DNA of 63,880 bases, filler included, from Vannella sp. (taxonomy: Eukaryota), in assembly GCA_023345925.1 (NCBI GenBank). It is 7 parts of 7 records of this genome, joined end to end, with 100 filler letters (N's around TTAATTAATTAA, not from the genome) between each part and the next. Parts side by side here need not be neighbours in the genome. Positions count along the whole stretch, not along the records: positions 5,125 to 14,471 come from JAJQQN010000260.1; 6 more parts are not named here. The stretch is one strand, 5' to 3'. Below the pieces are notes generated by a model. It searched no databases, had not been told where the DNA came from, and saw only the letters and a list, made by a program, of their open reading frames with translations. This document shows, piece by piece, positions 5,125 to 54,496 of this stretch. The position numbers and the translations under genes are program-made. The stretch's first letter is position 1. Each line of letters starts with the position of its first letter.

Positions 5125-5524
5125 AGAAGAGGAAGAAGAGGAAGAAGAAGAGCTGGAGCGAAGATGGCCCCTCCCCACACTGCACCCAACTCTTGTACCG
5201 CTCTTTTTCTCGCCTTTCAAAGGACCCAAATCGTCTTCACTGCTCAATAAATAGACGCCGAACCCACTTACAACTCATTCGTTCAAGGTGCAGTCTTCCC
5301 CTCCCGTCAATTGAGTCACTTCTTTCAAATTGACTTTTTGTGAGAATCAAGCGGAATCTCACGTTGTCATCATACACCGGTTCCGTCTCCAGAGGGAAGA
5401 GTGGAGATGAGAGAGAAGAAAGTCAATTCATTGGCCAGAAGGAAGAAAGTTGGGCCCAAAGAGACTATCAAATGGGCACACTTTTTCAGGCCTCTTCTCC
5501 AAGGAATGGAATCCAACCACGGCA

Positions 5525-6241
5525 CTAAAAGGCATCGACCTTGTACTGAACCTTGGTTCCCACCTGATGAATGGAAGTGTTCAGGCTCCGAAGTTCAACT
5601 TCTTCTGCATTCTCAATCTCGACTTCCTCTGTCTCCTCCCACTCTGCAGGGACCTCGACACCTTGATCAGTGTACGCTAGAAGGTCAAACTTGACTCGAG
5701 TCTCTATCAATGGCAAGTACGTGACGGAAGCGCAGATCTGCCTGATGATCGCTTGAATGTCTCGTTTGATCGCTCCGCGATCTGCCGTGGCGGAGCTGTC
5801 CAGGTGAGTGTTCCATTGCAATGAGGAGAGGATGCCTTACTTCAGAGGCTGATCGTTCTCGTCGTTCTCCACCTGTACGTCAAAAGTCCACATCTCGATG
5901 GGCGTGTTGTCGTGGAGGGAGCTGATGACTAGGTTCAGACGAGAGAGGTTGTGGTTCTCTAGCCAGAGGCCCACTTGCTTCATGTACTTCTGGAGGAACG
6001 AGACCAGCTCGGGGTCGTCCGCAACGAAAATAGGGATTCCGTACTTTTGAACGCGCTTAAAGGAGCTTCGCGGGTAGATTCCGCGCTGGTCGAGGATGCT
6101 GCAGATGCTATCTCCAAAGAACTGGCGCACAATGTCGCAAGACCCTTTCAAGGTGAGTGTGTTCTCAACGAGTGACGTTGTTCGGCTCTTCCCTCCCGTC
6201 AATAACTCTCACCTCCGCTGACCAAGACAAGTACTCACCAT
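5525..6241 (-). CDS. MAD2: Spindle checkpoint HORMA protein Mad2; exons 6241-6239 (ATG only), 6187-5841, 5795-5525
   Basis: TLTLKGS...SIL.QRGIYP...F.RVQKYG and IQAIIRQI.ASVTYLP...LRSLNTSIHQV are Mad2 signatures. Introns 6188-6238 and 5796-5840 restore the frame. Confidence 0.95.
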
Positions 6242-6291
6242 GGCTGCTGAATGCGATATGAATGGTGTTGTCAGCTCAACTGAATTGTAAC

Positions 6292-6323
6292 TTTCCCGCC
6301 AAAAAAAAAAAGAACTTCCCAAT
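6292..6323. promoter_or_regulatory. E2F-like site TTTCCCGCC (6292) and CCAAT box (6319) upstream of MAD2
   Basis: Exact match to the E2F consensus TTTSSCGC ~50 bp upstream of the MAD2 ATG. Confidence 0.5.
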
Positions 6324-6334
6324 CAGTGCAATGT

Positions 6335-8044
6335 TTATTCTTCAGATAAAAGGAAATCGATGGCTTGGTCTAAGTTATTGCCGCATCTTTCCAATGTTGC
6401 TCTGCAGCGAGATGAAGAGAATCCCAAATTCTCGAGTGCGGCAACGTTTTGCTCCAACAGGTGATCAAAGGGCTTTGGAGGTTCTTCGAACTTTTCATTC
6501 GAAGGTGGAGGTTGGTGATAGCCGTGGGCCTCTCCCCATGAATCCATTGGATAGTATGGATCCTGGGCAGGCTCGTTTTTAGAGAACTCATCGCGCCGAG
6601 GGGAGGGTGAGATATCTTCCGCTGCGAAGTTAATCACAATGGGAGAGAGAGGGAGGATGAGGGTATCGTCTTCAGAAATGATCATGCATTGTTTCCATGA
6701 GAGCTGCCCAGCTGCTGCGGCAGATGCAGGGAACGTGATGCCGACCCTGGCCTGCGCGCCTGGTGCAAGTGGGGAAATCATCGCGTCCAGCCCGATTTCA
6801 GCCCCAACTACCAGTCGAGTACCTTCTGGCCAGGGGACATCTCCAGTATTCATGACAACCCAAGACTTGTTGAACTCTTTGTTGGCTGGCAGCTCCGACT
6901 CATTTGCAGGAGATCCACTCTCCATCTCTTTGCCTTCATAATGTACCACTTGGGCCTCAGGTTGAACTGGTGGCTCCCCGGTCCCAAAGGAGAAAAACGA
7001 GGGTCCTGATTGAGCGGGGGGTTCCTCTTGAATCTCAGGCTGAACTGGTAGCGGCCCGGTCCCAAAGGAGAAAGCCGGTTGAGCAGCGGGGGGTGCAGAA
7101 TCCTGATCGGCTTTGAGGTTGAGAGAGCTGGTATGTTCATCTTCCATTGGTTCTTTCTTCATCTGAATGGGTTTGGAATCAGAAGAGGGCACTGAGGCAT
7201 TGCTCACTTCTATCGCACTCTGGTCTCCAGAAGACAGTTGGTCAGTACCTCTTGAAGCTGACAAATCTGATAGCTGGAAAGGTGAAGAGTGAGGCTCCTG
7301 TGGCTGAGGAGGGACCTGAGATACTGTCCGTGGGTCCTGGATTCCCATTTGCAAGAAAGAAGAGATGTACGCTGATTCAAGAGGAGCAGACCCTTCTCCA
7401 ATGTGTGTCACCGAGGAGCTGTCAGGAATGGAACCGAAATGACTTGGTTCAGGGTGGGGCGAGCCATTGAAGGATCCAGAGTTGGGATACATAGTGCTAG
7501 CGTGTGTCGAACCAGCGAAGGGAGAACCAGGGTAAGCAGTGCTGGGGTAAGGAGAACCAGGATACGCAGTGCTGGGGTAAGGAGAACCAGGATAAGCAGT
7601 GCTGGGGTAAGGAGAACCAGGGTAAGCGGTGCTGGGGTAAGGGGAACCAGGGTTGGTAGTGCCAGGGTGTGTACCAAGATAGGGGTAATCAGAGTAAGTG
7701 GTTACAGGTGGGTACGGTCCAAGAACCGAGCGCGTTACAGACTGGCACATCGTAGAGGCCAAGATGTCGTCGCTGCGCTGTCCAGGTTGGACGACGTAGA
7801 AGCGTGAGTTGGTCAAACGAGTGATTTGATGAAGGTGACTGATAGCCTCCACTAACTCCTGGTCGCAAGAGACAGTCACCAGCTCCTTCTCCTCGTCAAA
7901 GTACTTCAACGAGAAAGCTACCTGCTGAAGCTGAAAGGCGCTCCTCACGCGATCCAGTACATCCTGATAGTGCACTTCATCTGCCTTTAAAGCTATCCTT
8001 CGTACATCATCTCCCCGAGAGACCTTGAGGACGACCCTGGACAT
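6335..8044 (-). CDS. NBR1: NBR1-like selective autophagy receptor (PB1, FW-like Ig domain, UBA)
   Basis: N-terminal PB1 (VVLKVSRGDDVRR...LKYFDEEKELVTVSCDQEL), FNKSWVVMNTGDVPWPEGTRL (NBR1 FW domain) and C-terminal UBA (LENLGF...NNLDQAIDFLL). Intronless. Confidence 0.8.
   Translation of the reverse strand: MSRVVLKVSRGDDVRRIALKADEVHYQDVLDRVRSAFQLQQVAFSLKYFDEEKELVTVSCDQELVEAISHLHQITRLTNSRFYVVQPGQRSDDILASTMCQSVTRSVLGPYPPVTTYSDYPYLGTHPGTTNPGSPYPSTAYPGSPYPSTAYPGSPYPSTAYPGSPYPSTAYPGSPFAGSTHASTMYPNSGSFNGSPHPEPSHFGSIPDSSSVTHIGEGSAPLESAYISSFLQMGIQDPRTVSQVPPQPQEPHSSPFQLSDLSASRGTDQLSSGDQSAIEVSNASVPSSDSKPIQMKKEPMEDEHTSSLNLKADQDSAPPAAQPAFSFGTGPLPVQPEIQEEPPAQSGPSFFSFGTGEPPVQPEAQVVHYEGKEMESGSPANESELPANKEFNKSWVVMNTGDVPWPEGTRLVVGAEIGLDAMISPLAPGAQARVGITFPASAAAAGQLSWKQCMIISEDDTLILPLSPIVINFAAEDISPSPRRDEFSKNEPAQDPYYPMDSWGEAHGYHQPPPSNEKFEEPPKPFDHLLEQNVAALENLGFSSSRCRATLERCGNNLDQAIDFLLSEE
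7521..7650 (-). repeat. 30-bp tandem repeat (~4.3 copies) encoding YPGSPYPSTA
   Basis: Unit ggagaaccagggtaagcagtgctggggtaa is directly visible. Confidence 0.95.
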
Positions 8045-8104
8045 GGGAAGGGAAGAGGAAATGAGTTTTCCAGTTCCCCTCTGTCTGATGCACCCCAGAG
8101 CAAG

Positions 8105-8998
8105 TCAGCTTGTTCGTTTAATGTAAACGACGTAAAGGAACCCCAACGCAATCAAGGAGGAGGTGAAGGCGAGGAGAATGATCGTGTGTCGAAGGCGGCG
8201 GCGTTTGATCGCTTTCATCGTTTGATTGACCTGCGGCATGCTTCCTTTGGGGTTGTTTAGCGAGAGAAATACAAGGATATGAGGAGGTGGTACCTTTGGC
8301 GAGCTCTCGGAGACGAGAGGCTCCGGAAGTGAGGAAGCGACCTTGGCCTTCAAGGGCAGAGCGGATGCGATTGCCATTTCTGCTTCGCAGTGAGATGTGG
8401 GTCTTGATTTAAGCGGTAAAGGTTACTCTATAAAGTCATCTGCTCTTCCTTCTATCATGCCAAGTGACACCTTCTCTTCTACGAGAAGATCCATCTTGTC
8501 ACTCGACTTCTCCTCCGGAGTACTTGCTGAGTGGAGGAGTTGGAGTCTCGCTAGGAGCTCCTCTTCCATCCTTTTCGTCTTTTGGAATAGTGTCTGTTGG
8601 TCACAAAGACGGACTCGATGGGAGTGGACAAGGGAACGATCACGTCCCTCTTCAGGAAGCCCGACCTCCATTTGCGCGATCTTCTGCTCTAACTGAGCAC
8701 AGTGAGTGATCCTCTCCATAGCGTGGATCGCTCACACCTCAGAAAGCATCGTTGAAACCTCTGTGGACAAAGAAGACGACTCAGAGGATGGCGATGACAC
8801 TCTCAAACGTTGCACACTGCCCGAATAGCGTTCCTGTAAGGACTCCAAAGCCGCCTCCATCTTCCTCGCCACGACCCTTGCCTCTGCAAGCTCCCCTCCC
8901 GTCAAAGGGACCACAGCTGGGTGGGTGGGGGAGTGAGAGACCTCTGTCGCCCACGGCGCGTCCTCGGTCGAACCAAAGCGTATCCCCTTGCTTCCCAT
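8105..8998 (-). CDS. Golgi Qb-SNARE, Gos1/GOSR1-like (4 exons; alternative start 9016)
   Basis: Spliced product ends ...IRSALEGQGRFLTSGASRLRELAKGSMPQVNQTMKAIKRRRLRHTIIL plus a C-terminal TM anchor, the Gos1/membrin pattern. Confidence 0.7.
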
Positions 8999-9056
8999 CC
9001 CCAGGAACTGCTCCATCAGAGGGGAACTTAGGGGAAGGGATCATTTCGTGCGGGCG

Positions 9057-11513
9057 ATGCGCGGTGGGTGGGACAAGAGCTCTGTCGGAGACTTTGTCAA
9101 TGGACAGTTTGTTGCAGCTCCTCTTGGTGCTCCTCGTGTTGCTCCTGTTGCTCCTGTTGCAGAGGATCTGAGTGAGTGTCTCCCTCCAGGTCTGAAGCTA
9201 CCAGTGAACCGAGCAGGTTCCTCGGTTCCTTCTGGGCTGGTGGACCTTCCTGATTCAGGTCCTTTCCCTATTCCCCGGTCTTCATTTGAGCAAGAGACGT
9301 CTTTCTATCGAAGTGAAGCAGCAGGCCTTCTTCCCCTTGGCTTGTTTGGAAGTCCGCAATCTTCCCCCTCTCTCTTTGGTCCCCCTCAAGCGGGCCCAAC
9401 GCCCCCCTTCGGAGCTTCCACAAGAGTGTTCAATGTAAGTGACCTTGAGAATCGGTTGACAGCCGAGTCTGCCAACCCTGGAGGGAGCTTCTTCAACCAG
9501 CCAACTGAACCGCCTCCTTTTCGGCAGTTTCTTGGCGTAGAGGCTGCCTATCCCATCTCACAACACCCATATCAGGTCCCTGGTTATGGTAGTGCGAACT
9601 CAACCGATGCAGAAAGTCTCTCTCATATGCTGGAGCGCGCACGTCTCCAGGATCCACCAGGAGGTGCATTCCCAGAGCACCAAGCGGCGGAAAGGCGAGC
9701 TTTTTCAAATGCTCCGCCGCAGCAGAACTTCAGGGAGCCCTTCGCAGGGTTGGGAAGCCCCTCTCCTGCCATTCGCCCTTCCCGCGAGGAGCTCTTCGCA
9801 ATGCAGCAGCAACAACAGCAGCAGCAGCTCCAAGCATTACGTAACATGAGTCCTCAGATGCAAGAGCAGTACATTCGAATGCAGCAGCAGCAGCAACAGG
9901 AGCAACAACGGTTGTATCAGATGCACATGGCGCAACTGAGAGGGATGACGCCGCAGCAGCAACAAGAATATCATACCTTTATGCAGCAACAGCAGAACCA
10001 GAGAATGTCTCAACAGCAACCTCAATTGAGACCATTCCAACCAGACGGAAGGAACTTCAATGAGGTCCAGAGACCTTTTGCAGCCACAGAAGCACCCCAG
10101 GAACCTCCACTTATAGCTAGAAGAGAAGAATCTTGGGCTCACACCCCTCAAACCCAGGAGAATCGGCAAACTCCACAAAGCGAAACCGGCAATGCTCGGC
10201 CCCCAAGACAGAGGCTGGTCGTCACTGATGTTGGCCCAAATGATCCAAAGCTGACTCCAGAGGAAGTTGGATTTATTGTGACGCGCATCTCCGATGAGGA
10301 AATCGAACAGCTGGAGCGGGAAGAGCGGAAACAGGAAGAAATGTCAAAGATCATCCTTCCTCCCCCTCCACCCGATGACAGGAGGACTGGCACTTACCTC
10401 ACTACTCGTTCTAAGCGTATTCTCGGGAAGGTATGAGCTTTCCATTGAATGCAATGCTCCTAGCTTACATCATTTCAGCTGCCTCCCCTTCTTGAGAGAA
10501 AGGAACAAAGGATCAATCAGGCTATCACTTCACTGCTAGAGACTCTGCAACCCCCTTCGGCTGCCAAAGCCAACAGGGAGAATTTGCTGAACAAGATGCA
10601 ACTCATTGTCGACTCCATTTGGCCAGGCAAGGGAGCCAAACTTCATCTGTTTGGTTCAAGTGCGAACGACTTCTGCCTGAAAGGACATGATGTTGATATG
10701 TGCCTCACAGTGGATCCACTTATTGGTGAGAAGGCTGACATCATCACTCTTCTTGCAAACGCATTGCCACCTGACCAAGTGAAAGATGTTAATCCTATCA
10801 TCTTTGCTCGAGTACCTATTCTGAAGTTCAAAGATATCCAAACTAACCTCTCATGCGATATCTGCATCAACAACATACTTGCTCTTCGTAACACGAAGCT
10901 GTTGGCCGACTATTCTGCAATTGATCCACGGCTCCGTATTTTGGTGCTTGTGGTCAAATTTTGGGCTAAGAGGCGCTCAATTAATGAGCCGTTCACTGGC
11001 ACTTTGAGCTCTTATGCGTACGTTCTAATGTTAATTCAGTTCCTGCAAACTCGAAGTCCCCCTATTCTTCCCTGCTTACAAAGAGCCATTGATAGCAACA
11101 CCCCTCAAGTCACCATTCAGGATTTCAATTGCACTTACAATGAGGACATTGCCAGTTTTAAGAACTTTGGAAGGAACAATAGAGACTCACCGGCTAAGCT
11201 CCTAGTGAACTTCTTCCAGCTCTACGGATTCGAGTACGATTACATTCATTCAGTTATCTGCGTGAGAACAGGCGGTTTTGTCTCCAAAGACGCAAAGCAG
11301 TGGATGATCCCTTCCAATCCCCGCGAGTGTTCCTTCTTTGCGCTTGAAGATCCCTTTGACACAACTCATAACTTGGGCCGCGTGGTTCATCGAGTGGGAG
11401 TGGAAACCATCCGCAATGAGTTTGAGCGCGGATACAAGATTCTGGTCAAAACTGGTGATTTGGAGCGAACCACACGGCAGTACACAGAAGAGAACCCAGA
11501 CACTCGATGGTGA
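9057..11513 (+). CDS. Cid1/URT1-type terminal uridylyltransferase (~802 aa) with long disordered polyQ N-terminus; intron 10431-10478
   Basis: LFGSS...DVDMC...CDICINN catalytic aspartates, GTLSSYAYVLM, and LEDPFDTTHNLGR (nucleotide-recognition motif with the His typical of TUTases). Confidence 0.9.
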
Positions 11514-12858
11514 TTCTGATCATAAATAATTCCGAACAATTATCAAAACAAAGCTGAAGGAAGAGCGAAAGAAGCGGAAGATATTTTGAGATATTTTGGG
11601 ATAGTCGCATAGCTTGCTCCACAGAGCACTTTTTGGTCTCGGTCTCATGGAGTTTGTAGAAGAGGAGGACTCCGATTGCCTTCCCGGAGGGATGTCCCAC
11701 CAAAGGAGCATCCATACCATACAGAGTAGCCGGAGCAAATCAACTGCCCCTTCGAACATCAAAACGTGCCTCTCAAAAGTAGTAGGTTCTTCCTATTGCT
11801 CCCGCCTGTTCTAACATGAGGTAGTACTCCAAGAAGAAGCTGTCCTCGGAGCTCCTTTTCAAAGCCTCCCCAGAAAGCCGAAAGTTGCGACAGCGAGCCA
11901 AACCCCCAAAGGCTCCTCAAAAGCCAAGAAGAAAGAAGATCCAGGCCACAGCACGGGAGCTCAAAGGGTTTGTGTGGGAGGTGAGTCTATGGAGGAACCC
12001 CCAGGGAGAAGGCCACTAACTTGCTGGAAGGACATGTTCCCTGAAACTCCGTGCGTTCGAAGGGAATCTGGGTAAGCTCCTTTCATCTAAATTACTGCGA
12101 TTCAAACAAGTTTTAGGAACCGCACGTTATCCAGCATCCGAACCAAACGACAGATCCCAGAATTGAACATGTTTGGAGAATAGGCCCATTCAACCGCGAG
12201 GTTGATCCTTCTTGATAACCAACAGACATAAGAAACGGTTAACTGCATCCTAAACACCGAATTAGTCTTTCTGTCTTGGATAGATCAGTCACGAGAAGGA
12301 GAGAATTCACCGCCCAACGGAACTCACCTTGATTCGTGGTGTGACTGCAAACATCGAGTACGCACATAGGGGACCCAAGCATAGTCATAGTCTCTCAGTG
12401 GCAGTCTTTGGACATTAAGATTAAGTGTCGATTAGACAACTTTACCCAAGTCACTTATTCTTTTCAATACCCCATTCCTGTTCTCTACCAAGCCCTTCAG
12501 TCCCTGCAAGACTACTAGTAGGTCCTGGAATCTTGTTGAGTGTCGAGCTCGGATCAACAGATAGGAAAGGGGCCACATTATTGGTACTCGAGCTTGCTGA
12601 CAGGAATTCATTCTGATCTCTTGGCTAAGGGACGCTCCTTTGTAGTATGATAAGGAAGGTATGAATACGAACCAAGTTCCAGCTCCGAACATCCCTAGAA
12701 GGAGAAGAGGAGAATTCTCTCCTCGGCTCTTGAATGATCTCCAAACGGGCAGTTCAGGAAGCTCATCTTATCTCCATTCGAGAAGCTTTTAAAGTCAAGT
12801 CGTTGAAGGATTGTCTCTGCTTGGCCATTTCACAGGCCACCCTCACCATTGGTGTGCA

Positions 12859-14318
12859 ATGCTATTCCGTGGGGCGACCTTCCGGATTGTCAGGAGATGC
12901 GCTGTTTCCCACGAAGAAACGCTGATGGAACGAACCATCGAATGGGCAACTGGTCTACCTGGAGTAAGCTTTATCGATGAGTTCAATCGTCCGCTGACTG
13001 GCCTCCAGAAAGAAGCTTCCCCAGAAGTCCAGGAAGTCCTTGCCGATGTGCAATCTCCTGTCCACAAGGCTGCTCTTGTGGCCATCTGCAAACACATACA
13101 GGTAAAGCTTGCCTCAAGCCCACTGTGAATCAGGCTGAGATCCTACAGAAGAGGACCTATCTCATCAGGAGGAAGGACTTTCTCCTCTTTGCAGGGGGTC
13201 CAATGTTATTGGAGCCGTATGGGTCTCTACAGAAGCTCCTTCAGCAGAACACAGATCTACTTAGCACTCTCAATACCAATGCTCCTCGCAACTACTGGAA
13301 GGATCAGTCCCACCAGCGCGCATTCTTGGAGTCTCTGGCGTCTAGCAAGGGACTGTCCGTCCCAGACCAACTAGATCAGATCTCAAGAAACGAAATCGTC
13401 CAGTCTGGCGGTCGTCAGCTCCTGAGGCAGCACCCATCTTTGTACTCGATGTGCAAAGCTCTATATCCGGACTTCCCGTGGACGTTGTCCTCGTTTGCCA
13501 GGACTCCACGGGGATCTTGGGATAGTACATCAAACCAGAAAGAGTTCTTCGACCAGATGATCCAAGAGTTACAGCTTCCTAGTCCCCTCAGCCTCGCCGA
13601 GATCTCTACCACCGAGGTGAAGGAGAGAGGAGGGCGCTCAATCATGGACAAGTACCCCTCCTACTACTCTTTGCTACGAAAACTATATCCAGAGCAAGAT
13701 TGGAGCATTGCTCGCCAGCGAATCCCACGAGGTCATTGGGGGGAAAGCGCGAACGTTGCTGAGTTCGTGGAGGCTGTGCGCCAGACATACGCCATCAAGA
13801 CGAAAGAGGACTGGTATCGAGTATCTCTCAATCAGCTGGGAGAGATAACTGGAGGAGATCGCCTCCTTCGATTATATGGTGGTCTTGGCGCTATCCTCGC
13901 TGAAGTCTATCCTGAAGAGCACTGGGATACCCTTCGCTTCAAGAAGAGAGACAAGCGTGCTGCACAGCGCTTCCTGTTTGTCCAGCTCAGCCGCCTCTTC
14001 CCCGCTTACGAGATTATCGAAGAGCACAACCATGCGGATGCTACACGGCTTTCTGGTCAAACAGTGGAACTGGACGTCTTCATACCCGCTCTTGGCTTAG
14101 CTTTTGAGTATCACGGGGTGCACCACTACAAGGAGACCACAGCTTTCGGTCCCATCGAGCTGTACCTCGAAAGGGATCAAGAAAAGCTGTCTTTGTGTCG
14201 CCAATGTGAAATAGAACTGGTTGTAATACCCTACACTTGGGATGGTAAAATCAGCAGTCTCAGGCAACAGATTCCCGCCCGTTTTTTGGAACAAAGCGAG
14301 GAGAAAGGATTTCATTGA
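12859..14318 (+). CDS. Repeat-array + Vsr/DUF559/RAP-like PD-(D/E)xK nuclease-fold protein (~470 aa), putative organellar presequence; intron 13102-13148
   Basis: N-terminus MLFRGATFRIVRRCAVS. Three ~74-aa repeats (PRxxW...F...GGxxLL...YPxxxW) plus a partial one. C-terminus ELDVFIPALGLAFEYHGVHHY...RDQEKLSLC...IELVVIPYTW. Confidence 0.8.
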
Positions 14319-14471
14319 TAAATAGGACAAACATACACGGTTGGTTGGGTTGGTAGGAGCTTAGCTTCTGTTGGTGGTCTTGGGCTTTCGCATGTCCCAG
14401 ACGAAGGAGAACAGAGGGGAGATCATGGCACGCAGTGGGGGTCGATCAAGTTTTGTATCTCCTTGGACCCC

Positions 14472-37194: not shown

Positions 37195-40100
37195 TTAAAT
37201 CCAAGCGGCCCATCCCTCGTACATGGAGGCGAGGTTGGAAGAGCTGGTGGCTTCTCTGATGGTTTGGTCGACTTGGTCTTCGACAGAAGCGTGGTGAGCT
37301 CGGAAATCGTTGCCTTGAAGCTTGGATTTGATGCGGCGCAATGCACTGATGGCGTATGTGTTGCGCTCTTGTTGGCAGTGGCCGGGGCTCTCTCCTCCCT
37401 CTTCGTCTCCTGATTGTAAGAGTGGTTCAGTGATCCCTTCCTTCTGGTCTTCCTTCCACTGAGCGAGCTGTTGTGTCGCTGCTTCACCAACATCTCTAAT
37501 CTGCTGGGCAAGTTCCTGTAGCGTTCCCAAAGTTTCCGGCAAATTGACTTTTCGTAAAGTTGGCTTCGCATTTGACTCTGGATGAAGCAAGGTTTTAAAG
37601 AGTGGCTGCCATTCTTCCTCATTGCGTATCATGAGAGCCCTGTACTTGGAATAGAGATTCTTGGTAAGTACATAAATGGCAGAGTCTGAGGCGGTTTCCA
37701 TTTGTCTTAGAATATGTCGGACAAGCGGGATGATGGCTTGGAAATGGGACAGAAAGTGTGAGAGTTGTTGAGAAAGAGAAGTCGCTTTGCCCAAGAAGGA
37801 TTTCGACTTCAGAGCGAGTTGCGTTTCCAGAGATTGCGTTGACGCACTTTGCTGTTGGGCCAGTTTCGTGTGATGAATCAAACCTTCTTTGTTGCTTTGA
37901 TAGGCGGTTCTTCTTTCCTCCAGTTGGATGGAGATATCTTTGATGGACTTGTGATGGGTTTGCAACATGTTTTGGTGATTAGTGAGTGCTGACAGCAGTT
38001 CTGAGGTCTCGTTCCAGATGTCTTTGGACTGATTGGATGAGGAGTTGTGGAGCTCTTCAAATGAGGCGATTCCTTTGCAGATTTTAGTGAGCTTCCGGAC
38101 AGCTTCTGTCGAGGATGTGAAGGCTGCCTGACGGGCGATAATCTGTCCGTGGACGAGAGTGTGATATCCTCCAGATCTTCTTTCCCAAGATACGAGCTCG
38201 TCTGTCTCTCTTTCGTTCTCGGACAAGGAAGAATGTTGCTTCTGAAGGAGCACTTCCTGCGCTTGAAGCTCCGATGAAAGGGAACTCAAGCGGCTTCGTA
38301 TTTTAGAGAGTGGAGTGGTTCCATCATCCAGAAGGCCTTCATGCATCAAGCTGAACTGAACGAGGAACTCTTTTTCTCGTTCAAGCGAAGTTCTGAACAA
38401 GTTCACACGGAGTTCATGATCACGCTCCAAAAATTGACCAGAATAGAGCTCCATGAGAGTATTCCGCAAACCCTCCACAGTTTCACCTTCACTCAAGGAA
38501 GGATTACTCGTATTCAGATTCACACTCTCTTGAGGTGCACTTGAAGGATGAGGTCCGCTGTTAAGCAAATTGCAAGCAGAGGCGAAGATGGGACCAATCA
38601 CGTTTGATTGAATGCAACCCAAATATGCTGAAAGGAGCTTGGTGGCGCTGTTGTATGTGGTCAGAGAACAAGATGAGTCAAGAGATAAAAGCTCGTTCAG
38701 AAGCTGGAGCTTCTGCAGCCCGAAAAGGTCGAGATGGAGGTGCATTACATTCTGAGAGCTTTCTTTTTGGGATAAAGTGGCTGCTTTTGCTAAAGCAGAG
38801 GTCATCAAGTCCAATTGATCCAATAAATACAGAATCTCCTCTTGATTGACGAGCATAGATCGTAGACTCTCACTGGAGTGGAGGATTTGGTGTTGGCAAA
38901 GATCAATTTGGTCTTGCAGAAGGGATGTACGTTGTTGCAAATCCTGTTGCGCAACTTTTCTATCTTCCATCTTCCGTTGTAGATCTTCAATTTCTTCATT
39001 ATCTTCCCAAGAGTGCTCGGTTACTGCATCAAGCTCTTGGATCTTGGCCTGAGTTGAACAAATTTGCTCTGATAGTGTAGAATCATCCTCACTCAGTCCC
39101 TCCAGCTCACATTGAGACTGTTGAAGTTGCTGAAGAGTGCGAGAGCACTCAATAAGAGCAAGTTCTATCTGGTTTCGACCGGAGCAAAGCTCATCTTTCC
39201 GCCCTGCAATTGTCATGATGATCTGTTCGAAGGAGCTCTCCATTTGGTCCAGAACTCCAGCAATTGCGGTGAAGAGTTGCTCCACAGACAGGCTTGTGTC
39301 TGAGGCCAGAACCAAGTCTATTACAGCACGAATTCCACTGACATTTGAAGCAAACCCTTCTGGCCAAGTTGGCTGCTCACAGAATTTGGACGCCTCGCGA
39401 GACAGAACTCCACAAAGAGATGTAGGGTTTACATGTCCTATTCGCGGTCTTACTGAGGAGGGCATCCGCTTGGCACCATTCAGTTCAGCCAAAAGAGACT
39501 CAGTATTTCTGAGACGGGTTGAAAGCATCTGGAATTCGTCTAGTAGCTGATGATTTCGTTGGTCTGAAGTCTCTAATTCTAAATCGAAGTCTTTTCCTGA
39601 TCTTTGACACTTGATAGCGAGATTAAGGGCTTCCTCTGTGTAAGCCACTTCATGGTCGCTCCAATAGGTTGGAGGTAGGGACACTGTTATGTCCTTGTAA
39701 CTTCCTAACAAACTAGTACATTCCAAGACTAGCTCCTGCAACCGAAGCTGGCTTTCTTGGTACAGTTTTAACGCCCCTTGGAATGGCACAATGATATCTG
39801 GTCGTTCAATCGACAAGCTCATCAGTTCTGAAGACTTATCAAAATCATAAGTTGGCTCAGAACGAGCGAGAGTTTCTGATAGCTTCTCAAAGGTGTTTCC
39901 ACGTAAGGAAGAAGTTATTTCCTCAATTGCAAGTCGCTCATCCTTTCTCTTTCTTGATAACTGTTGCAATTTCACTGAGATTTGTTGCTGAGCTGTGGTT
40001 GCCTCGTGAATGAGCCTTTTTGCCTCCTTCTGTTCACTCATAAGCTCAAGTTGCCTTGATTCTTGCTGAGTAATACTCTGCTTGAGCGCACATGCCTGCT

Positions 40101-43100
40101 GGGAGGCTTCTCCAGCTTCTTGGGAAAGTTGCAGTTGTTCTAGCTTAAGTTGAATTACAGAGGAAGCACGGGCAATAAGTTGGTCTAACTCTGGTATAAA
40201 GCCGAGAGAATTAGATAGATTATCTGCAGTACCAGGAGCGCGAGCAGCGAGTAGCTCCAAGTTGGTCTCCAACTCCATTCGTAATTTGGCTTGACTCTCG
40301 ACTTTGTCGAGAGTCCAATCCACCAAAGGGTCGTAGACAAAAGCTTCGAGGAGGGTGAGCAGAATCTCCTTATTTGATCGGAGGACATTCAATGTACTGC
40401 AGCAAGACGCTTGGAAGGTTCCCTTCGTTCCCGTCGGTCCGAACGACTTTGTTATCAGATTAGTTAAACGGTACGGGACTACTTCAGGTATCGCTAGCTT
40501 CAGCCCACGTTCAAAGCAGATGTTGTAGTCGATGTGAATGATCTCTCCACGTGCAAGATCCACAAGTATGTTGTCAAGGTGGCGATCACCAAGCCCGAGG
40601 ATGTACCCGATCATGGACATAACTGCAACAGAGCGTGTGAACGCAAGTTGCTTTCCCCACCAATGATCGGCTGTTGGAGAGGCGCACCAAAGTGCTCTCT
40701 CTAGCAGGTCAGCAGGAGCCTCTTTTTGTAAACTGGTGAAGACTTGTTGGAGGACTTCAGTTGGCCAATGCTTGCGAGTTCTCAAACTCATCTCTGAAAT
40801 GCCAACAGCCTGGAGGGCAGGCTTCATGGCTGCATTAAACTGTTCAATTGGGCGGAGAGGCACTTGTTTGCGGGTTTGCCAGTGTTTGTAAACCTGGAAC
40901 ATCGGCACTGCTCCATCTACCCACTGAATGAATCCGGAACGTCTTCCAGTGGGAATCACAGCGTAAGTCCGAGATGCCAGACCTTTGGTATCTGGTCTAC
41001 TGTGTTGGAAGAGTTGATTTGCTACTGTGAGGCACTGCATTATGCGCTCATCCAAGTGTAGATCCTCCCTACCTTTGAGAAGGTATGGATACTTCCTTCC
41101 ATCGCTTCCGAGCAGCGCCATCTTTTTAGGTTTGGTCTTCGTTGGAAGAATTGATATTTGTGGGCGGAAAGCTTGAACAGTCACTTCGCAGGAAGACAGT
41201 CCAGGCATTCTGATGATAGACCCTTGCATTCGTGCAAGCTTGGGACTGACATCTTGCAAGCGTAGCTGGGTTTTCATGAGTTGGGCGAATTGGTCTTTGA
41301 TTCTGTCTAACGATTGCCAAGCTTTCCAAGGATCTCCGTAGTCAACAGGAGAGCGGAACTGTTCCACAGCACTGAAGAGCTTTGGCTTGAATTCTTTTTG
41401 GAAAGCTGATTCAAACGGAGTCTCAGCGGGTCGGTTCAAAGTTTCCATGTAGTCTGCAAGCTGCAGCAAAAACAGTTTCATCAGAGATTGATACTTTTCC
41501 AAGATCTGGCGGTGATGTTCTTCTTTAGAACCGGAGGAGGAGAGGATTCTCCGATGCTCCTCTCTCATTGTATTACAACGAGCAGGAAGGCGAGAGGCAA
41601 TCTGCTCCAGAAGAATTAGTCCTGTCTCAGGCCAAAGCACTGTGAGTCGTTCAAATTCACACAAAGTAGTTTGAACTTGGTCATAGAGCAAAGGATGAGC
41701 CTTTTGCAGAGAAATTGCCAACTCATGGATGCGATGATGCCTTAAAGTACCAATTTGATACTCCTGTTCTCCAACTAGGATAGGATACATGATCTCATGT
41801 GGCCGATCCACTCCTAGTTTCATGATGAGGCGTTGGACTTCAGCTTGTATCGAAGAATCTGGATGTCCAAGCCGTGAAAACAATTGGGGAATGATACTGT
41901 GCCATACTGCAACTGAGGTTCCCTCAAGGCGATTTGAAAATGAAGATGCCACCTTGGTTCCATGTTTTGTGAGAACTTCAAGGATGCGCAGGGTTGCTGA
42001 GATCGTTTTTACGGCGTTTTGACTCCCTTCTGTTTGAAGAGAGATAAATTGGAAGTAGGAGTGCAATGCCTTCTCATGGAAAGACCAGATGGTAGACTCT
42101 TGGCTTCTTTTCAATTCACAAATAGCTGTGATGGTGTTTTCTGAAAGGTCTGGAAAGTTATTCGCCAAAACCATTGGGGAGCAATTGGGATGTTGCACAG
42201 CATTGAGAAATGTACTCCAATCTGTTGGGGTAGCAATTGCTTTGAGTGCGGATATAAATTTCCTTTGAGCGCGGTGAGCTTGCTTCCAGCACCAATCAGC
42301 CAGTTGAAAATGTACATTGGCAGAGGACGGCAGCGTCATTGTGGCGACGAAGAACGATTGTCCAGAAGCACAATTAGCATAGCTACTTCCGGCTGCAAGC
42401 AGGTCCTCTTTAAGAGGTGAGAATGGAGCTGAGTTATCTTCTTCTAGCCAGTTACTGAGTAAATGCAATGCTTCCACAGCTACTTCTGTGGATTGAGTCA
42501 GGACAGCCTCATCGATAATTAGGTGTTGAAGCTTGGTAAGAGCCACTCCAGGTTCATTCAAACGGATCACTTTACAGCGTTCTAGTTCCACAGATAATGT
42601 AGCAGGGATCATTGCTGCAATGCGTTCGTGCAGTCTCAAATTATTTTGTTGTCGAGCCAATGAAAGGTGAGGAAGTAAGTTATCTCCTGGGTTTCTGACT
42701 GTCCTAAGTAACATATTGCTGCAGCTAGCACCAATTTCGGATGAAAGCGCCACCCTCTCGGGGCCTGACTGGCTTTTTGAACCTGAGGCACATTGAAGAG
42801 CTATTTGGAAGGGAAGAATTTCGTTTGGATTGGAGGAAGTTCGTAATCCGGTTCTGCAAAGCGTCTTCAAATTGACTTGTTTTTCTTCGGAGGGTTTGGC
42901 AAGGTAGGAGAGTGCTTGGACATACACTTCATTTTGGAAGTCTGCTAACGAAAATCTCTTCTCTTGTGAAGCAATGACTGGAGCTGGTAACGAAGACTCG
43001 CTCTCCATATGATACAAGGCAGAAACGTATGAAGACTTATCATGGAGCGCGGTATTAACGCGATTTCGGACCTTCGTTGTGAATTGTTCCAATGAAAGAA

Positions 43101-46100
43101 GATTCCAGTCTCCCAGAGCAGCAGCGCACTCCACAAGACGAGAAGTCACAAAATTCGTTGTTTGATCAGAAAGGGGAGTTTGGCTGCAAAGAATCTGGCG
43201 ATACTGATCAGCTGCTGCTTCTAGCTGCTGATCAGCTTGATTACGGATTGCTTCGATCCAAGGAGCTTCAATTCCAATTGGAAAAGGAGGGGCGAATCGA
43301 TTCAAGAAGTGTTCTACATAACCAATCAAAGCATCACTTTCCTTTGCTATACATAGTGCTAATGCAAGTTGTGACAGGCAGTATTCAGCGTCAACTCTGA
43401 CGGCTGAGGTGGACTTGAAGGTTTGGGAATCAGCTAATTCAGTAAGGCGACACACTGAATGATAGATAATAGATGAAAGGTTGCCACTGACTACAGAAGC
43501 AACAACGGCTGGTTGCCGCATTCTTGCAAACCAATCGACACACACTTTTCGGTTATCCACAAAGAACTTGATCCCACTTGGCAGCGAGGACGCAATAGTA
43601 CCCTCACCAGCAATGAATATTCGCTTTTCCAGTAAATCAACAAACTGGAGGAGGGATTGGAGTGCTTGAGGAGATTCAGGGCAAAGAGATGACACAGAAA
43701 TTGGGGCAGAAGGATACTGAGGCTCCCACTGAGCAACATTCCAAAGCATCTGCTCAATAGCTCCGAGAGTTTTCATGGGGCTACCAAAATGGGTAGTGAG
43801 AAAAGCATTGATGCATAAATTGACAGCTTCCCACGACATCCAGAAACGGGCGATTCGGATATTAATTCCTGAAGCTATTTGCACGACTTGCTGAAGGGCC
43901 TCTGTATCGAGCGAGCTGTCAGCCTCCAGTTGTTTGGAAAGCGAGGATGGCAAACGAGTCAATTCTAAGAACCGATTCAGAAACTCTGATGAAATGGTAC
44001 ACTGGTGAGGAGCTTGGAGAAAACTCATGAACTCTTGGAAGTGAAATCCCTTGAAAGAGCGAGTGGGAGGCATGGTTAAAATCGCAAACAGGGTTGAATC
44101 CATCATAGTGGTAAACCTTTCTGGCGGGGCTAGTTGGAAAGGAAGTGATTCTAGAGCAGTTGCTGCTAGTCCTTGAATCGCTTCCGATGAGTCAGCAAGA
44201 CCAAACCATGCAAGAGCACGGATTGGAGAAAGGAGAATCCCGACATCTTTTGCTGGGGACTTGGTTAGTAGTTTGCATAAAACTATCCAGGCACTTTGGC
44301 GAATTGGGTGATCCACATGACTAAGAAGAGGAGTGACTGCAGGAAGGACACACGAATAGAGGTTATCGATCTTGTGGTCAAGAGAAGCATTGATAGTATC
44401 AAGAGCTAATAGAATAAGTCTTTTGTCATTCACTTTGGTTGTTATGTCCTTGAGAAGCTCAAAGACTCCCTTTACAATCGGATCAATAAGCTGACAAAAA
44501 GAATCACGAATGAACAGGTGTTGAATAGTCACTAAGGTACAATATTGAAGACGAGGGGACCTCATTATTGGCTCGACGTTCACAGGGTGATACTTTTGGA
44601 GGATGACACTCAACAGTTTAGCACTGTTTTTGAGAAAAGTTTCTCCAGTAAGGACCAACATGTCAAAACAGAAAAGCACACGCGATTGTGAGGCAGAAAG
44701 CACTCTGCTTCCTAATTCATTGAAAGTCAGACTGTGCAGAAGAAAATCCATCTCCTCCTCTATCAACAATTTCAAACTTCGGAGAGTGCTACTCTGGGCG
44801 AGAATAGAGTATGTCCCAAGAATAGCAGTGGTTATTCTACCGCTCCTATGATATCTTAAGCGAGCAAATGCTGAATGAGTGTCAAGTAGTCTCTTGAAAG
44901 GAGAGAACTGGGTGAGCATCCCCAGCAGGGAAAGCACAGAATTATTCAGCTCCAGCAAGCTTACTGTCATGTCCTCAGACAGAGAGGATTCAAGCTGTAC
45001 AAGCAAATAGTCTACGCACAGGGGGTAGTGAGCAGCTCGACTGCTCTCACTCATAGTTCGAAAGCAACGAAGTATCCAGTGATTGACTTATATCTGTTAG
45101 GGAAATTGCCGAATAAAACGAGTGGCGTTTACCTTGTGATTGCCTGATATTCGTATGGAGACTAAAGGCGAGGAGGCTGGTCAAAATCTCGCTCATTTGC
45201 TGCTCCATATTGGTAACAATCCCCGGGACAGTGGATCCAATGGTCAAAAAGCATCTGCACATATGAGTCGATAGGTTCTTCCGAGTGGTAGTCATCGTAC
45301 GAAAGAAGTGCTTGATAAATGGATGCTGTTTTTGCTTTAACGCGCTGGTAGGGGAGAAATGTTTCCACAGAGGAGTGCATTTGGATGCAAAAGCTCTGCA
45401 TGAGACCTGATGTATACCTGTCGTTGACTTTCCAAAGAGGAGCGAAGGTAACAAGTGTTTCCTCAATTGCCTGGCAACTTAGCTCCGGTAACTGCTCAGC
45501 TAATCGCCAGCCCAAGAGAGAGTCAACAATTGTCTGTCACGAACTGATGAGAGAAGGTTGTTTTTGTGATCAGGAGAGGCCTACCACGAAGTAAGGCGCG
45601 AATTGGCTGGTGAAGCGCTGATAGATCATCCGGATCACTTGGATGAGGTATGGGAGGCGATCGACAGTTATTGTGGAAGAGAGAGCTCTAAACTGGCGGA
45701 GTATTGAAGCTATTAAATGCCAGGGGAGGGCTACTCGGGCAAACTGTTGGAGAAAGATGAGCGCGAACCGGAATGGGGAGAGGATCTTAGTACCCCAGCT
45801 ATAACTCTCAAGGAAGCTTCTTGATAGCGTTGATCTTGACATCCTCGAAGTAGCCAATCAATCCCATACGAAGGAAGGACAGCACAAACCAAGGAGATGA
45901 TCTCTACCACGTTTTCTTGCTCATGCGGGCTTCTCTCTGTTAAGAGGGCAAAGAGAAGAGTTGAGAGAACTAACCGAGATGATGTTATAATGTCTTGAAG
46001 GGCAGCTAAGGCATCCCCAAGGTCACCCGACATGTTGGCCTCCTTCATTTGATCCAAGATGGGGCGGACGTTGCTCAAAAGCTGGTGAAGAGGACCACCC

Positions 46101-51506: not shown

Positions 51507-54496
51507 ATGTTCTCGCGGGGATGCTCGCGCCTTGGGGCTCTCCGATGGCTGCCCTTCGTAAGGAGGGTATCGTTAGTGAATGATGTGGGCATTGTGACAA
51601 GGAGCATGTGCTCCCTCTCGATCTCTCAGCTGGGAGGCCAAGAGCAAGAGCATCGCGTGATTCTGGAGAGGATTTGGAGGGAGAAGGGCGGTGACCAGAG
51701 CTTGCAAGACTGGTGGTACAAGACTCCTCTCGTAGGTCTTCGTCGATGTGGTGCTGGACCTGTTCTACGTCACTACCCGTCGATCAAGGAGTGCCTTTCT
51801 CAAGGTGAGCGGATTCGCCTTGCTATTAGGAGGAATCTCAGCTTGTGTAGTCTATCCTGAGCACGAATGGGATCCCTTTCACTTTACACACAAGCCTAGA
51901 CACTTTTGGGACTCACTGGACAACCAACGAGAGTACATGAAGCGATTGGAAAGTCATTTCCACGTCAAAGAACCGAAAGACTGGCTTTCTGTCAATGTTG
52001 CACACTTCACAAAGGAAGGAGGACTCACCCTCTTCCGAAAACATCCCTCATTTCAAGCTCTCCTCCGGGCAATGTACCCAGAAGAGTCTTGGGATGCCTT
52101 TCAATGTCGGACACCTCGCCGCTATTGGGAAGATAGCGGCAATGTGAGGGCTTTTTTAGAGGGCTTTGCAAAGAAGAAAGGAATGCTGCAGCCCGAAGAC
52201 TGGCTTTCTGTCTCCCACGGAAGCATTAAAGAAGTTCCTGGAGGAAGCGGATTCCTTTCGTGGTACAACTACTCGCTGATAAGGGCTCTGGAGATGGCGT
52301 ATCCCGAAGTGTCTTGGCGTCAAATGAAAGATGAGAAGCTTTCTGTCAAAGCTGCAGCAAAGGAGCCTCTCATGAACGTGGCAGAGATGCGCCAAACTTT
52401 TGATGCCATCGGCAAGGAATTGGGTGTCCAACACCTTGATGACTGGTACAAAGTCTCAGTTTCTGATATTAAGAAGCGCTCCAGCTTCATCCGTAAGTTC
52501 CCGAACAAACTGGAATGCTTCCGGACTGGTGAGTCTCTCCGATGAACCAACCCGTTGGCTCACTTTTGGGAGTGCCACAGTGTATCCAGAGCATAACTGG
52601 AATGCACTTATGTTTGACAGGGTTCCCAATCGGTGTTGGGCGGATCCTTTGGTGCAAAAACAGTTCTTTGAAACTGTCAAAGTGACGCTCGGAATCGAGA
52701 CAGAAGGACTCCTTGCTGTACCAACAAAGGAGTTCTGTCGCTTGGGTGGAACGGGACTGATGAAAGCGAATAAGAGCCGTAAATATGACGTTATTCTGGC
52801 AGGTAAGACAGAGCTAACTGTCAGTTACAGTCACATCTCACCTCCTTGGACAGTTTATCCAGAGCTTAACTCACAAGCTTCAGTGGCTCAGCAAGATCCA
52901 GAATACTGGAAAGATCTGGAACGTACAAAGGGCCTTCTAGAAAGGATTCAAGGGCAATTGAAGATTTCTTCTCCGCAGGATTGGGACAAGGTGTCCATTC
53001 GTTGTTTCACTGAATTGGGAGGTGGACCAATGCTGCGCTCTTTCGGCAGCTTGCGGGCAGTTCTGTCAGCGGGTACGTGCTAATGAATCACTCCGCCTTT
53101 TAACAGGTCAGAATAGTTTACCCCAATCAGGATTGGGCGCATCTTTCGCAGCACGTTCCAAACGGCTACTGGAAGATGCATTCCCACCAGCTCCAGTATT
53201 TCAGAAAAGTAATGGAAAAGGAACACCTTTCATCTCCATTGGAGCTGAAAGACGTTTCCAGGCAGACTCTCTTCGATTTGGGAGGAAGAACTCTCATTAA
53301 CTCTTTCCCTAGCTATTACGACTGTCTCACAACAGGTTGGGCTTCGCGTCACTAACTCCACTGAATCTAACTGGGTCTCAGTGTTTCCAGAAGAGCCTTG
53401 GAATGTTTTCGACTTCCCAAGTCTTCCTCGATCGTTTTGGAAGCAGAAAGAGAATCACAGAAAGTATTTGGACTGGCTTGGTAAGAAGCACAACATCCAA
53501 TCACCACAGGATTGGCAACGCGTTTCCGTGGATGACTTGAAAAAGTCGCGCGGCTACAAATTGCTTCAATTCTATGACAGTTTCTTCAGCGCCTTGCAAA
53601 AGAACTATCCGGAACACCACTGGGATGTTTTTGAGACTCGAAGAAACGTCCCCCGGAACTACTGGAAGGATCACAATAACTGCCGACTCTTTCTCGACCA
53701 ATTTGTGAAAACTCATAACATCTCCACTGCAGAGAACTGGTCGCGCATCAGCAAGGTAGATATCATCAACTTTGGTGGCTCAGGTCTACTTTATCGTACT
53801 GGCTTTATCGCGATGATTCGGGAGTATTATCCGGAGATGAATTGGAAGAACATTGTTATTCCTACCCGACTTCCAGCAGGACACTGGGATGATGATGATA
53901 ACATCCACCAATTCATCAAACAATTTGAAAAAGACTTTCGAGTTAGACGGCCGAGTGACTGGCTCCGTATCTCGTCCAAACAAGTGCGCGACGAAGGCGG
54001 TCAAAGTCTCTTGAAGAAGTTTGGAGGCCTCTTTCATCTGTGCCAGTGGCTACATCCCGAACATGAATGGGATGAAGCTGACTTTAAGAGCCGTGACAAA
54101 CGCTCTGTCCAACGCCTCTTGTTCGTCCAATTGCAAGAGATCTTCGCCGGGCAGGAGCTTGTGGAAGAGTTCATCCATGATGGTCTAACAAGGAGACTGG
54201 GCCGTGCAGTTGAGTTTGATGTGTACCTTCCTGACCACCAAATTGGCATCGAATACCACGGTCGCCATCATTACGACGACATTCCCTCCTTTGGGATGCT
54301 CGAAATGTACCAAACGCGCGACACCGAGAAGATCACCCTCTGCCAAGAGTCCAACATCACACTAGTGGTCATTCCTTTCTGGTGGGACTGCTCCATTGAC
54401 AGTCTCTGTGGCACTTTAGGACCCCTTTTGGCCGACCGATTCCCCCAAACCTTTCCGAGGCCCTTCAATTGTCCCATCAGCCTAGTGCCCCATTAA
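51507..54496 (+). CDS. Ten-repeat array + Vsr/DUF559/RAP-like nuclease-fold protein (~916 aa), putative mitochondrial presequence; exons 51507-51804, 51851-52528, 52581-52802, 52854-53072, 53117-53335, 53382-54496
   Basis: Five GT-AG introns join four ORF-track fragments plus one missed exon into a single frame. C-terminus EFDVYLPDHQIGIEYHGRHHY...RDTEKITLC...ITLVVIPFWW. Confidence 0.85.

Follow-up and report, generated by a model that had tools for sequence, protein, structure and literature searches.

The pairing of a modular reader with a Vsr-like domain is known from two kinds of protein, the RAP proteins (FASTK, OPR-RAP, HPR-RAP, and apicomplexan members) and the EDxHD homing endonucleases such as I-Bth0305I. 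RAP proteins carry N-terminal helical repeats in front of a C-terminal Vsr-like alpha/beta domain, and FASTKD5 as well as the OPR-RAP and HPR-RAP proteins are thought to cleave RNA at processing sites. TALE and PPR readers provide an analogy of function alone, in that their tandem modules combine conserved scaffold positions with a few hypervariable ones. The EDxHD enzymes are bipartite, with a modular binding region of NUMOD or helix-turn-helix (HTH) type and a Vsr-like cutter, and a composite E-D-x-H-D motif is described for the I-Bth0305I family in the available part of that report (PMC3239194). Vsr, DUF559, and DUF2726 make up group 58 in the accessible portion of the classification by Steczkiewicz et al. 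2012 (PMC3424549), where they are listed as prokaryotic and RAP forms a separate, eukaryotic group. Here we describe a gene at positions 12859-14318 (+ strand) of a 63,880-nucleotide stretch of DNA from Vannella sp. (assembly GCA_023345925.1; the whole stretch is called the window), the product of which places an array of ~75-residue repeats, a reader module that is undescribed, in front of a domain of this Vsr-like type. We tentatively favor the view that the product is a mitochondrion-targeted, module-guided endonuclease acting on DNA.

In such an enzyme, a presequence-like leader would provide entry into mitochondria, the variable array of modules would choose the DNA site, and the constant Vsr/EDxHD domain, apparently active as judged from the conservation of its residues, would cut at the chosen site; the cut might then be followed by recombination-dependent repair or by sorting of mitochondrial DNA, which is speculation. 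We infer a DNA substrate because the nuclease is homologous to homing endonucleases, because the other partners of this domain (treble-clef zinc fingers, NUMOD) bind DNA, and because the family has bacterial members. Further points that favor DNA are the slight resemblance of the repeat unit to HTH domains and the DNA ligase fusions in 3 of 110 scanned relatives.

Gene model and domain architecture

The window consists of seven contigs with N...TTAATTAATTAA...N spacers between them, and the focal gene lies on the contig that occupies positions 5125-14471. Its two exons are separated by a 47-nucleotide GT-AG intron and encode 470 residues, in the order basic, acid-free leader, half repeat, three full repeats (~74 residues each), conserved linker, and C-terminal nuclease domain (~115 residues). 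In the list below, P0001 denotes the translation of exon 2, P0003 is a presumed orthologue (an uninterrupted 455-residue open reading frame (ORF) on a 1,552-nucleotide public contig), the repeat hidden Markov model (HMM) was built from family members, and the fractions given for the putative catalytic codons (P0001 numbering) refer to 145 full-length domains, which are the best profile matches, so that selection by score accounts for some of the agreement.

12859-13101, + strand: exon 1, start ATG at 12859, 81 codons (sequence reading; homology to P0003 runs through exon 1)
13102-13148, + strand: spliceosomal intron, 47 nucleotides, GT..AG, phase 0 (gap-free P0003 alignment over the junction)
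13149-14318, + strand: exon 2, ending with the TGA stop at 14316-14318 (its translation is P0001, 389 residues)
13158-13247, + strand: half repeat, HMM positions 31-59, the 'GG..LL..YGSL..LL' part (repeat HMM, 6.4 bits, weak; spliced residues 85-114)
13284-13505, + strand: repeat 1, P0001 46-119 (repeat HMM, spliced residues 127-199, E 2e-26)
13506-13724, + strand: repeat 2, P0001 120-192 (repeat HMM, spliced residues 201-270, E 5e-24)
13725-13946, + strand: repeat 3, P0001 193-266 (repeat HMM, spliced residues 274-347, E 2.5e-24)
13947-14300, + strand: linker helix (RDKRAAQRFLF; Q273 invariant) and Vsr/EDxHD-type PD-(D/E)XK nuclease, P0001 267-384 (predicted fold, PHROG matches)
14067-69, + strand: putative catalytic codon E307, kept in 110/145, Q in 27
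14073-75, + strand: putative catalytic codon D309, kept in 144/145
14106-08, + strand: putative catalytic codon E320, kept in 143/145
14124-26, + strand: putative catalytic codon H326, kept in 144/145
14175-77, + strand: putative catalytic codon D343, kept in 145/145
14184-86, + strand: putative catalytic codon K346, kept in 144/145

The spliced product and P0003 were identical at 223 of 431 positions (E 3e-167), with no gap over the exon junction. The intron appears to be of normal size for the host, as judged from the candidate introns of the longer paralogue described below, which measure 44-52 nucleotides. A public gene call, P0002 (371 residues, from a near-identical contig and equivalent to window positions 13203-14318), begins at an internal methionine (MLLEPYG...), so that exon 1 and the leader are missing from it; one residue in its repeat 3 differs from the focal protein, F for Y. 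The stretch was contained in five sequencing runs, all of them DNA-type biofilm or freshwater metagenomes, with no RNA run among them, and its source is therefore a eukaryote that has not been cultured.

A preliminary description of this locus, made from the sequence by eye, had given it about 3.5 repeats behind a presequence-like start and a normal intron, in good agreement with the three full repeats, the weak half repeat, the basic leader, and the 47-nucleotide GT..AG intron of the present model. The strings that it quoted from the conserved linker and catalytic region were all located as well, MLFRGATFRIVRRC, RDKRAAQRFLFVQL, FEYHGVHHY, and RDQEK in the focal gene and RDKRSVQRLLFVQL, IEYHGRHHY, and RDTEK in the ORF of the paralogue at 53249-54496.

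The C-terminal domain resembles Vsr and EDxHD nucleases

The AlphaFold2 model, computed with an 11-row alignment, had a mean predicted local distance difference test (pLDDT) score of 80.4, with values of 83-95 over the linker and nuclease. In a VIA search of 48,161 solved chains with the nuclease model, the top match was the catalytic domain of I-Bth0305I (3r3p_B; Z 9.6, root-mean-square deviation 3.1, 98/98 aligned), and the DUF559-like 3hrl_A and Vsr (1cw0_A) gave Z 9.3 and 9.1, respectively. The same comparison returned RAP-type structures, namely a Toxoplasma gondii mitoribosomal chain (9g6k_L9, Z 9.0), the FAST/RAP module of FASTKD4 (9gek_A, Z 8.6), a subunit of the Polytomella ATP synthase (6rd4_2, Z 8.3), and Tetrahymena mL104 (6z1p_AS, Z 7.8). 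These Z scores fall within the tie range, and structure alone cannot part the DNA enzymes from the RAP domains. The modeled fold is that of the Vsr-like branch of PD-(D/E)XK nucleases. Foldseek against the PDB gave weak rows (best E 0.025), the two best of which were T. gondii mitoribosome chains; among predicted viral structures, 50 rows passed E<=1e-3, and DUF559 proteins, zinc-ribbon proteins, phage homing endonucleases, and giant-virus 'restriction endonucleases' were among them.

Significant sequence matches went to nuclease families of the homing type. Residues 300-369 of P0001 matched phrog_559 (3.4e-9) and phrog_9084 'homing endonuclease' (4.4e-6), as well as phrog_3339 (5.5e-4) and phrog_7140 (5.7e-4) 'intron encoded nuclease'; the matched families are named HNH, homing, or intron-encoded nuclease, the names being PHROGs' own. 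P0001 had no match in Pfam or NCBIfam, and a sequence search of the PDB with P0001 and with the family profile found nothing (best E 0.27). Among Pfam families, DUF2726 gave matches at E<=1 in the nuclease half of 16 members out of the 80 examined (best 6.4e-7), and one of these members (P0107) exceeded the gathering score; the DUF559 and Vsr profiles were not listed among the families matched by members, and NUMOD matched neither P0001 nor the scanned members. The Pfam RAP model (PF08373) gave no row for P0001 and matched none of 11 members at E<=1, fell outside the 25 commonest of the 108 Pfam families found for 80 members (at most one member), and was found in none of 36 plus 74 proteins at stricter cut-offs.

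Q273 in the linker helix was kept in all 145 full-length domains. E307, D309, E320, H326, and D343 correspond to the E-D-x-H-D set, as given in the accessible part of the published description (PMC3239194) and as matched by eye rather than by superposition. H326 is retained here, unlike the equivalent position of FASTKD4, in which Asn replaces the Vsr His and nuclease activity was judged lost according to the available portion of PMC11879112.

The likeness to EDxHD homing endonucleases (I-Bth0305I, 3r3p) extends from the match over the full domain, the PHROG families, and the conserved composite motif to the bipartite layout, in which a modular region binds and a Vsr-like domain cuts. The reader differs, consisting of N-terminal helical modules of ~75 residues here and of NUMOD/HTH elements there, and the setting differs too: the focal gene is nuclear, contains a spliceosomal intron, lies outside any intron or intein, encodes a presequence-like leader, and is one of a large paralogous family. 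The Vsr/DUF559/DUF2726 clade shares the fold (Z 9.1-9.3), and some of the present proteins give DUF2726 matches, mostly sub-threshold, but the members of that clade are listed as prokaryotic and single-domain or zinc-finger-linked (in the part of PMC3424549 available), whereas the present proteins form a eukaryotic nuclear family with a repeat array of its own. This family probably also lacks the zinc site of Vsr and the features specific to mismatch recognition.

A four-helix repeat with candidate specificity positions

The repeat HMM recognized 1,258 repeats in 167 proteins, with 1-25 per protein (mode 6) and a period mostly of 74-76 residues, and the C-terminal domain was present in 161 of these 167 proteins. 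The consensus is knYWksieNQRkFmd.L.kkLnlksldDWy.is...I..nGG..LL..Ynsl.kLL.siYPeypW.f.kFk, and the unit comprises four helices in the predicted model; a predicted model of three repeats reached a pLDDT of 84.0. The repeat is without a Pfam model, although in 5 members out of 80 it coincides with sub-threshold DUF4046 matches. Comparison of the repeat fold with the PDB by Foldseek gave nothing significant (best E 0.6); the annexin and TPR rows in its output had low probabilities. For the repeat unit the best VIA score was Z 4.5, and most rows were TetR-type HTH DNA-binding domains (Z 3.5-4.5), which is only a hint that one unit may be a small HTH-like helical bundle; the absence of a solved structural relative does not establish a new fold.

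The net charge per repeat averaged +2.5, with 72% of the 1,258 repeats positive, and the most variable positions gathered around the GG turn. Positions 43, 44, 47, and 48 were identical in 25 of 36 comparisons of orthologous repeats (P0001, P0003, and P0004) versus 7 of 36 comparisons within one protein. Residues that set specificity would be expected to behave in this way, and these four positions, compared in a small sample, are candidates for that role. Because of the positive charge, the weak HTH likeness, and the variable GG-turn positions that are kept between orthologues, the repeat modules probably bind nucleic acid. They differ from the alpha-solenoids of PPR, OPR, and HPR proteins in having a four-helix unit of 74-76 residues, not a hairpin of 35-40, and in giving no significant solenoid match; they have no sequence or fold relation to TALE or PPR modules, than which they are twice as long. 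In the literature outside subscription journals, a search turned up neither this repeat nor a repeat-nuclease family of this kind, and no paper on DUF4046.

A longer paralogue on another contig

An HMM scan of all six frames of the window found exactly two family genes, at 13284-14282 and 51696-54412, which bears out the earlier report of a second copy on a different contig. The second gene lies on the contig at 48689-58657.

51507-54496, + strand: longer paralogue, ~10 repeats and the same nuclease domain (HMM scan; inferred, partly built gene model)

Its predicted start is also presequence-like (MFSRGCSRLGALRW...). The two paralogues were 24-33% identical in the repeats and 50% identical in the linker plus nuclease, and the corresponding values for the focal gene and P0003 were 51-53% and 69%; the claim that the repeats diverge more than the nuclease thus holds for the pair in the window. 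Five candidate GT..AG introns of 44-52 nucleotides were placed in the paralogue (51805-51850, 52529-52580, 52803-52853, 53073-53116, and 53336-53381) by picking those that fit the repeat consensus and close the junctions between partial repeat matches. All five share one position in the repeat, immediately before V(Y/F)PE. Because of this shared position, the candidate introns, if correct, suggest that a unit already carrying its intron was duplicated to build the array, within the genome of a eukaryote.

Family size, distribution, and tree

When 1.84 billion cluster representatives were scored with an 11-member profile, it retrieved 28,347 clusters at E<=1e-3, a count that includes proteins with the nuclease alone in common, 7,598 at 1e-10, and 2,726 at E<=1e-30. 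The family is real and large, and it may be expanded in this genome, as the preliminary description supposed from two copies; the proposed combination of constant effector and variable reader is matched by near-invariant putative catalytic residues in the 145 relatives and by the range of repeat numbers. Named sources were few: one relative comes from Arcella intermedia, and other clusters bear the name 'hypothetical protein'. Neighboring Atlas clusters were mostly from Tubulinea and Discosea, and the nearest, mostly Tubulinea (score 0.96), is auto-named 'RAP domain-containing protein'.

Viral contigs contained 280 relatives that have the nuclease core alone in common, joined to treble-clef zinc fingers or to a transmembrane segment, and the repeat HMM found 0 repeats in 80 viral loci; giant-virus rows with long alignments in BFVD (Terrestrivirus, Yasminevirus, and Fadolivirus proteins) lie outside that 80-locus scan. 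Prokaryote genomes contained 219 relatives, and three of the best 80 of these loci have true repeats (3, 3, and 6) together with the nuclease. They belong to an uncultured bacterium, a Marinimicrobia single-cell genome, and a Deltaproteobacteria metagenome-assembled genome (L081-L083), so the family is not eukaryote-specific. The surrounding ORFs were read for L081 and L083 and provide a bacterial context, and an Rfam scan of the three bacterial loci gave no match. Partner domains in 45 scanned prokaryote ORFs were DUF4379 treble-clef zinc fingers (19), TerB_N (2), and NUMOD (1), and DUF4379-type zinc fingers also occur on viral ORFs with the same nuclease. These DUF4379 zinc-finger nucleases of giant viruses, phages, and bacteria share the nuclease domain of the present family (30-48% identity over the core) and the layout of a tandem small binding module plus cutter, but their reader module is a different one.

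A FastTree analysis of 150 nuclease domains (123 columns; unrooted, with weak resolution) grouped 40 of the 41 repeat-bearing rows with two bacterial repeat-bearing proteins (support 92), with 39 viral and 37 prokaryote rows, including the DUF4379 zinc-finger nucleases, on the far side of a 97* branch. As to origin, the preliminary description had offered a homing endonuclease or a giant-virus-type nuclease as the source. The first part stands insofar as the fold and the PHROG matches are of homing-endonuclease type. Giant-virus descent is not supported because the viral rows lie across the 97* branch, and we rejected it on this weakly resolved tree, in which the gene falls outside the viral sequences; the 80 viral loci had no repeats.

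Several members have unusual arrangements. In L083, the repeat-nuclease gene (L083:1792-3525) is flanked by ~400-nucleotide direct repeats that are 86-88% identical (L083:1372-1770 and L083:3569-3893), and downstream are an AlbA_2/ATPase-type ORF and an ORF that is integrase-like by eye; this repeat-flanked unit may be a mobile cassette. In three diverged relatives of the 110 scanned (P0076, P0142, and P0114), a match to PF01068 (ATP-dependent DNA ligase; E 1e-9 to 3e-7) sits 100-200 residues past the nuclease in the same ORF. P0096, P0107, and P0147 have two nuclease domains per predicted protein, the result perhaps of genuine duplication or of two tandem genes being read as one.

Presequence-like leaders

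The leader of the focal protein, MLFRGATFRIVRRCAVSH, is basic, its first 18 positions being free of acidic residues. In 109 relatives the leader is 15 residues or longer, and to these we applied a strict criterion (no D/E and at least 3 K/R at residues 2-21), which gauges N-terminal composition in a crude way and does not predict targeting. By this measure 41 of 109 leaders were presequence-like; the corresponding rate was 4.1% for internal windows in general and 3.0% for internal windows beginning with Met. Presequence-like leaders are enriched (41/109 against 3-4%), but the strict crude criterion, at 38%, does not show them in most members. Judged by its composition, the focal leader is consistent with import of the product into mitochondria.

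DNA or RNA as the substrate

Several points weigh against a mitochondrial DNA cutter. To our knowledge, all characterized nuclear-encoded, organelle-targeted proteins that combine helical repeats with a Vsr-like domain act on RNA. Expansion and variable arrays are typical of organellar RNA-binding families, and the Pfam DNA ligase model matched by three relatives may also catch RNA ligases. An expanded set of site-specific DNases is hard to rationalize in an organelle with a small genome. RAP domains score nearly equal to the DNA enzymes structurally (Z 7.8-9.0, within the tie range), and the HTH-like resemblance of the repeat is under the VIA reliability level. In the composition test that suggests targeting, 47 of the 109 leaders do not pass a relaxed rule either. 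Finally, FASTKD5 is an endoribonuclease, as stated in the available part of PMC12687428.

The alternative that survives best, possible though on balance doubtful, is a RAP-analogous organellar RNA factor: the array would bind mitochondrial transcripts and the Vsr-like domain would cleave RNA at processing sites, making the family a functional counterpart of RAP proteins where Pfam RAP is undetected. The general plan is the same as in the FASTK, OPR-RAP, HPR-RAP, and apicomplexan proteins, with N-terminal helical repeats, a C-terminal Vsr-like domain, predicted organelle targeting, expanded families, and structural Z scores of 7.8-9.0, and the two best Foldseek rows in the PDB as well as the automatic name of the nearest Atlas cluster point the same way. 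The enrichment of presequence-like leaders and a large family with variable repeat number, as in PPR, OPR, and HPR proteins, likewise speak for this alternative. RAP is absent or undetectable in Amoebozoa according to the accessible part of a survey (PMC8190603), and one relative of the focal gene is from Arcella; moreover, FASTKD5 shows that the fold is able to cut RNA (PMC12687428, available part). Yet Pfam RAP is unmatched (0 of 11 members at E<=1), and the significant sequence matches go to families of DNA homing endonucleases. The period of 74-76 residues, a four-helix unit without a significant solenoid (TPR) match, also contrasts with the 34-40-residue helical hairpins that are the partners of RAP domains. 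The catalytic His lost in FASTKD4 is kept, and homologues of the same architecture exist in bacteria, which have no organelles.

Between these two possibilities lies much of the interest of the family, which combines, in thousands of clusters, a Pfam-less repeat with a conserved Vsr/EDxHD active site and is apparently undescribed in the literature searched. It may be the missing organellar factor of the 'repeat + Vsr-like domain' kind in organisms where RAP is reported undetectable; alternatively, it may be a domesticated DNA cutter of homing-endonuclease type in mitochondria. A more elaborate form of the DNA-cutter reading, which we consider unlikely, is that the ~75-residue unit is an undescribed nucleic-acid-reading module with its specificity set at positions 43/44/47/48, and that the protein is a native, TALEN-like mitochondrial cutter with 3-25 readers and bacterial forerunners. 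A recognition code, if one exists, would constitute a new programmable binding scaffold, and the bacterial proteins of the same architecture offer a handle on the origin of organellar repeat-nuclease factors.

It is improbable that the protein is a non-cutting scaffold or adaptor, in which the repeats and a nuclease-like groove would bind nucleic acid, a ribosome, or another complex without cleavage: RAP-fold proteins are structural in the T. gondii and Tetrahymena mitoribosomes and appear among our structural matches, and FASTKD4 was judged non-catalytic (PMC11879112, available part), but a pure scaffold is disfavored because it would not be expected to keep its putative catalytic residues near-invariant (143-145 of 145; E307 in 110 of 145), including the His that FASTKD4 has lost.

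Residence in the nuclear genome and neighboring genes

The neighbors of the focal gene are ordinary eukaryotic genes that encode a HORMA protein, an NBR1-like PB1/UBA protein, and a Cid1/MTPAP-like nucleotidyltransferase, and both family copies in the window have ordinary nuclear genes on either side. We sought flanking repeats around the focal gene and found none that bracket it, only 14-22-nucleotide matches of chance size, consistent with the terminal repeats that had been looked for by eye and not seen. With its spliceosomal intron and ordinary neighbors, the gene appears to be a settled part of the nuclear genome, in keeping with the domestication that the preliminary description had suggested, and it is not in an intron, intein, phage, or mobile context.

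It is likewise improbable that the gene is a selfish or foreign element, that is, a free-standing homing endonuclease or a recent giant-virus or bacterial gene acting on nuclear or foreign DNA outside mitochondria. The homology of the nuclease to phage and giant-virus nucleases, the bacterial L083 member between ~400-nucleotide direct repeats with an adjoining ORF that looks integrase-like, and the many relatives without a presequence-like start would suit such an element, but the focal gene has an intron of the usual host size and no flanking repeats, the candidate introns at one place in five paralogue repeats would imply growth in a eukaryote genome, and neither the position of the gene in the tree, outside the viral rows, nor the 80 repeat-less viral loci fit a recent viral source.

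The Cid1/MTPAP-like nucleotidyltransferase gene (10464-11510, +) is the next upstream on the same strand, with matches to the MTPAP-like central palm (1.2e-30) and PAP_assoc (2.4e-16); we infer nothing from its adjacency to the focal gene. Elsewhere in the window, positions 37198-45087 (-) hold a single unbroken ORF of 2,630 codons for an SMG1-type PI3K-related kinase (PI3_PI4_kinase, SMG1, and FATC), and such an intronless ORF is unusual next to genes with many short introns. The contig of the longer paralogue also carries a gene for the methylcrotonyl-CoA carboxylase beta-subunit (56789-58255, -). This gene is so conserved that it gives no more than a hint of amoebozoan origin: its best EukProt relative is from Clydonella sp. 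(Amoebozoa) with 81%, and bacterial relatives reach 77-80%.

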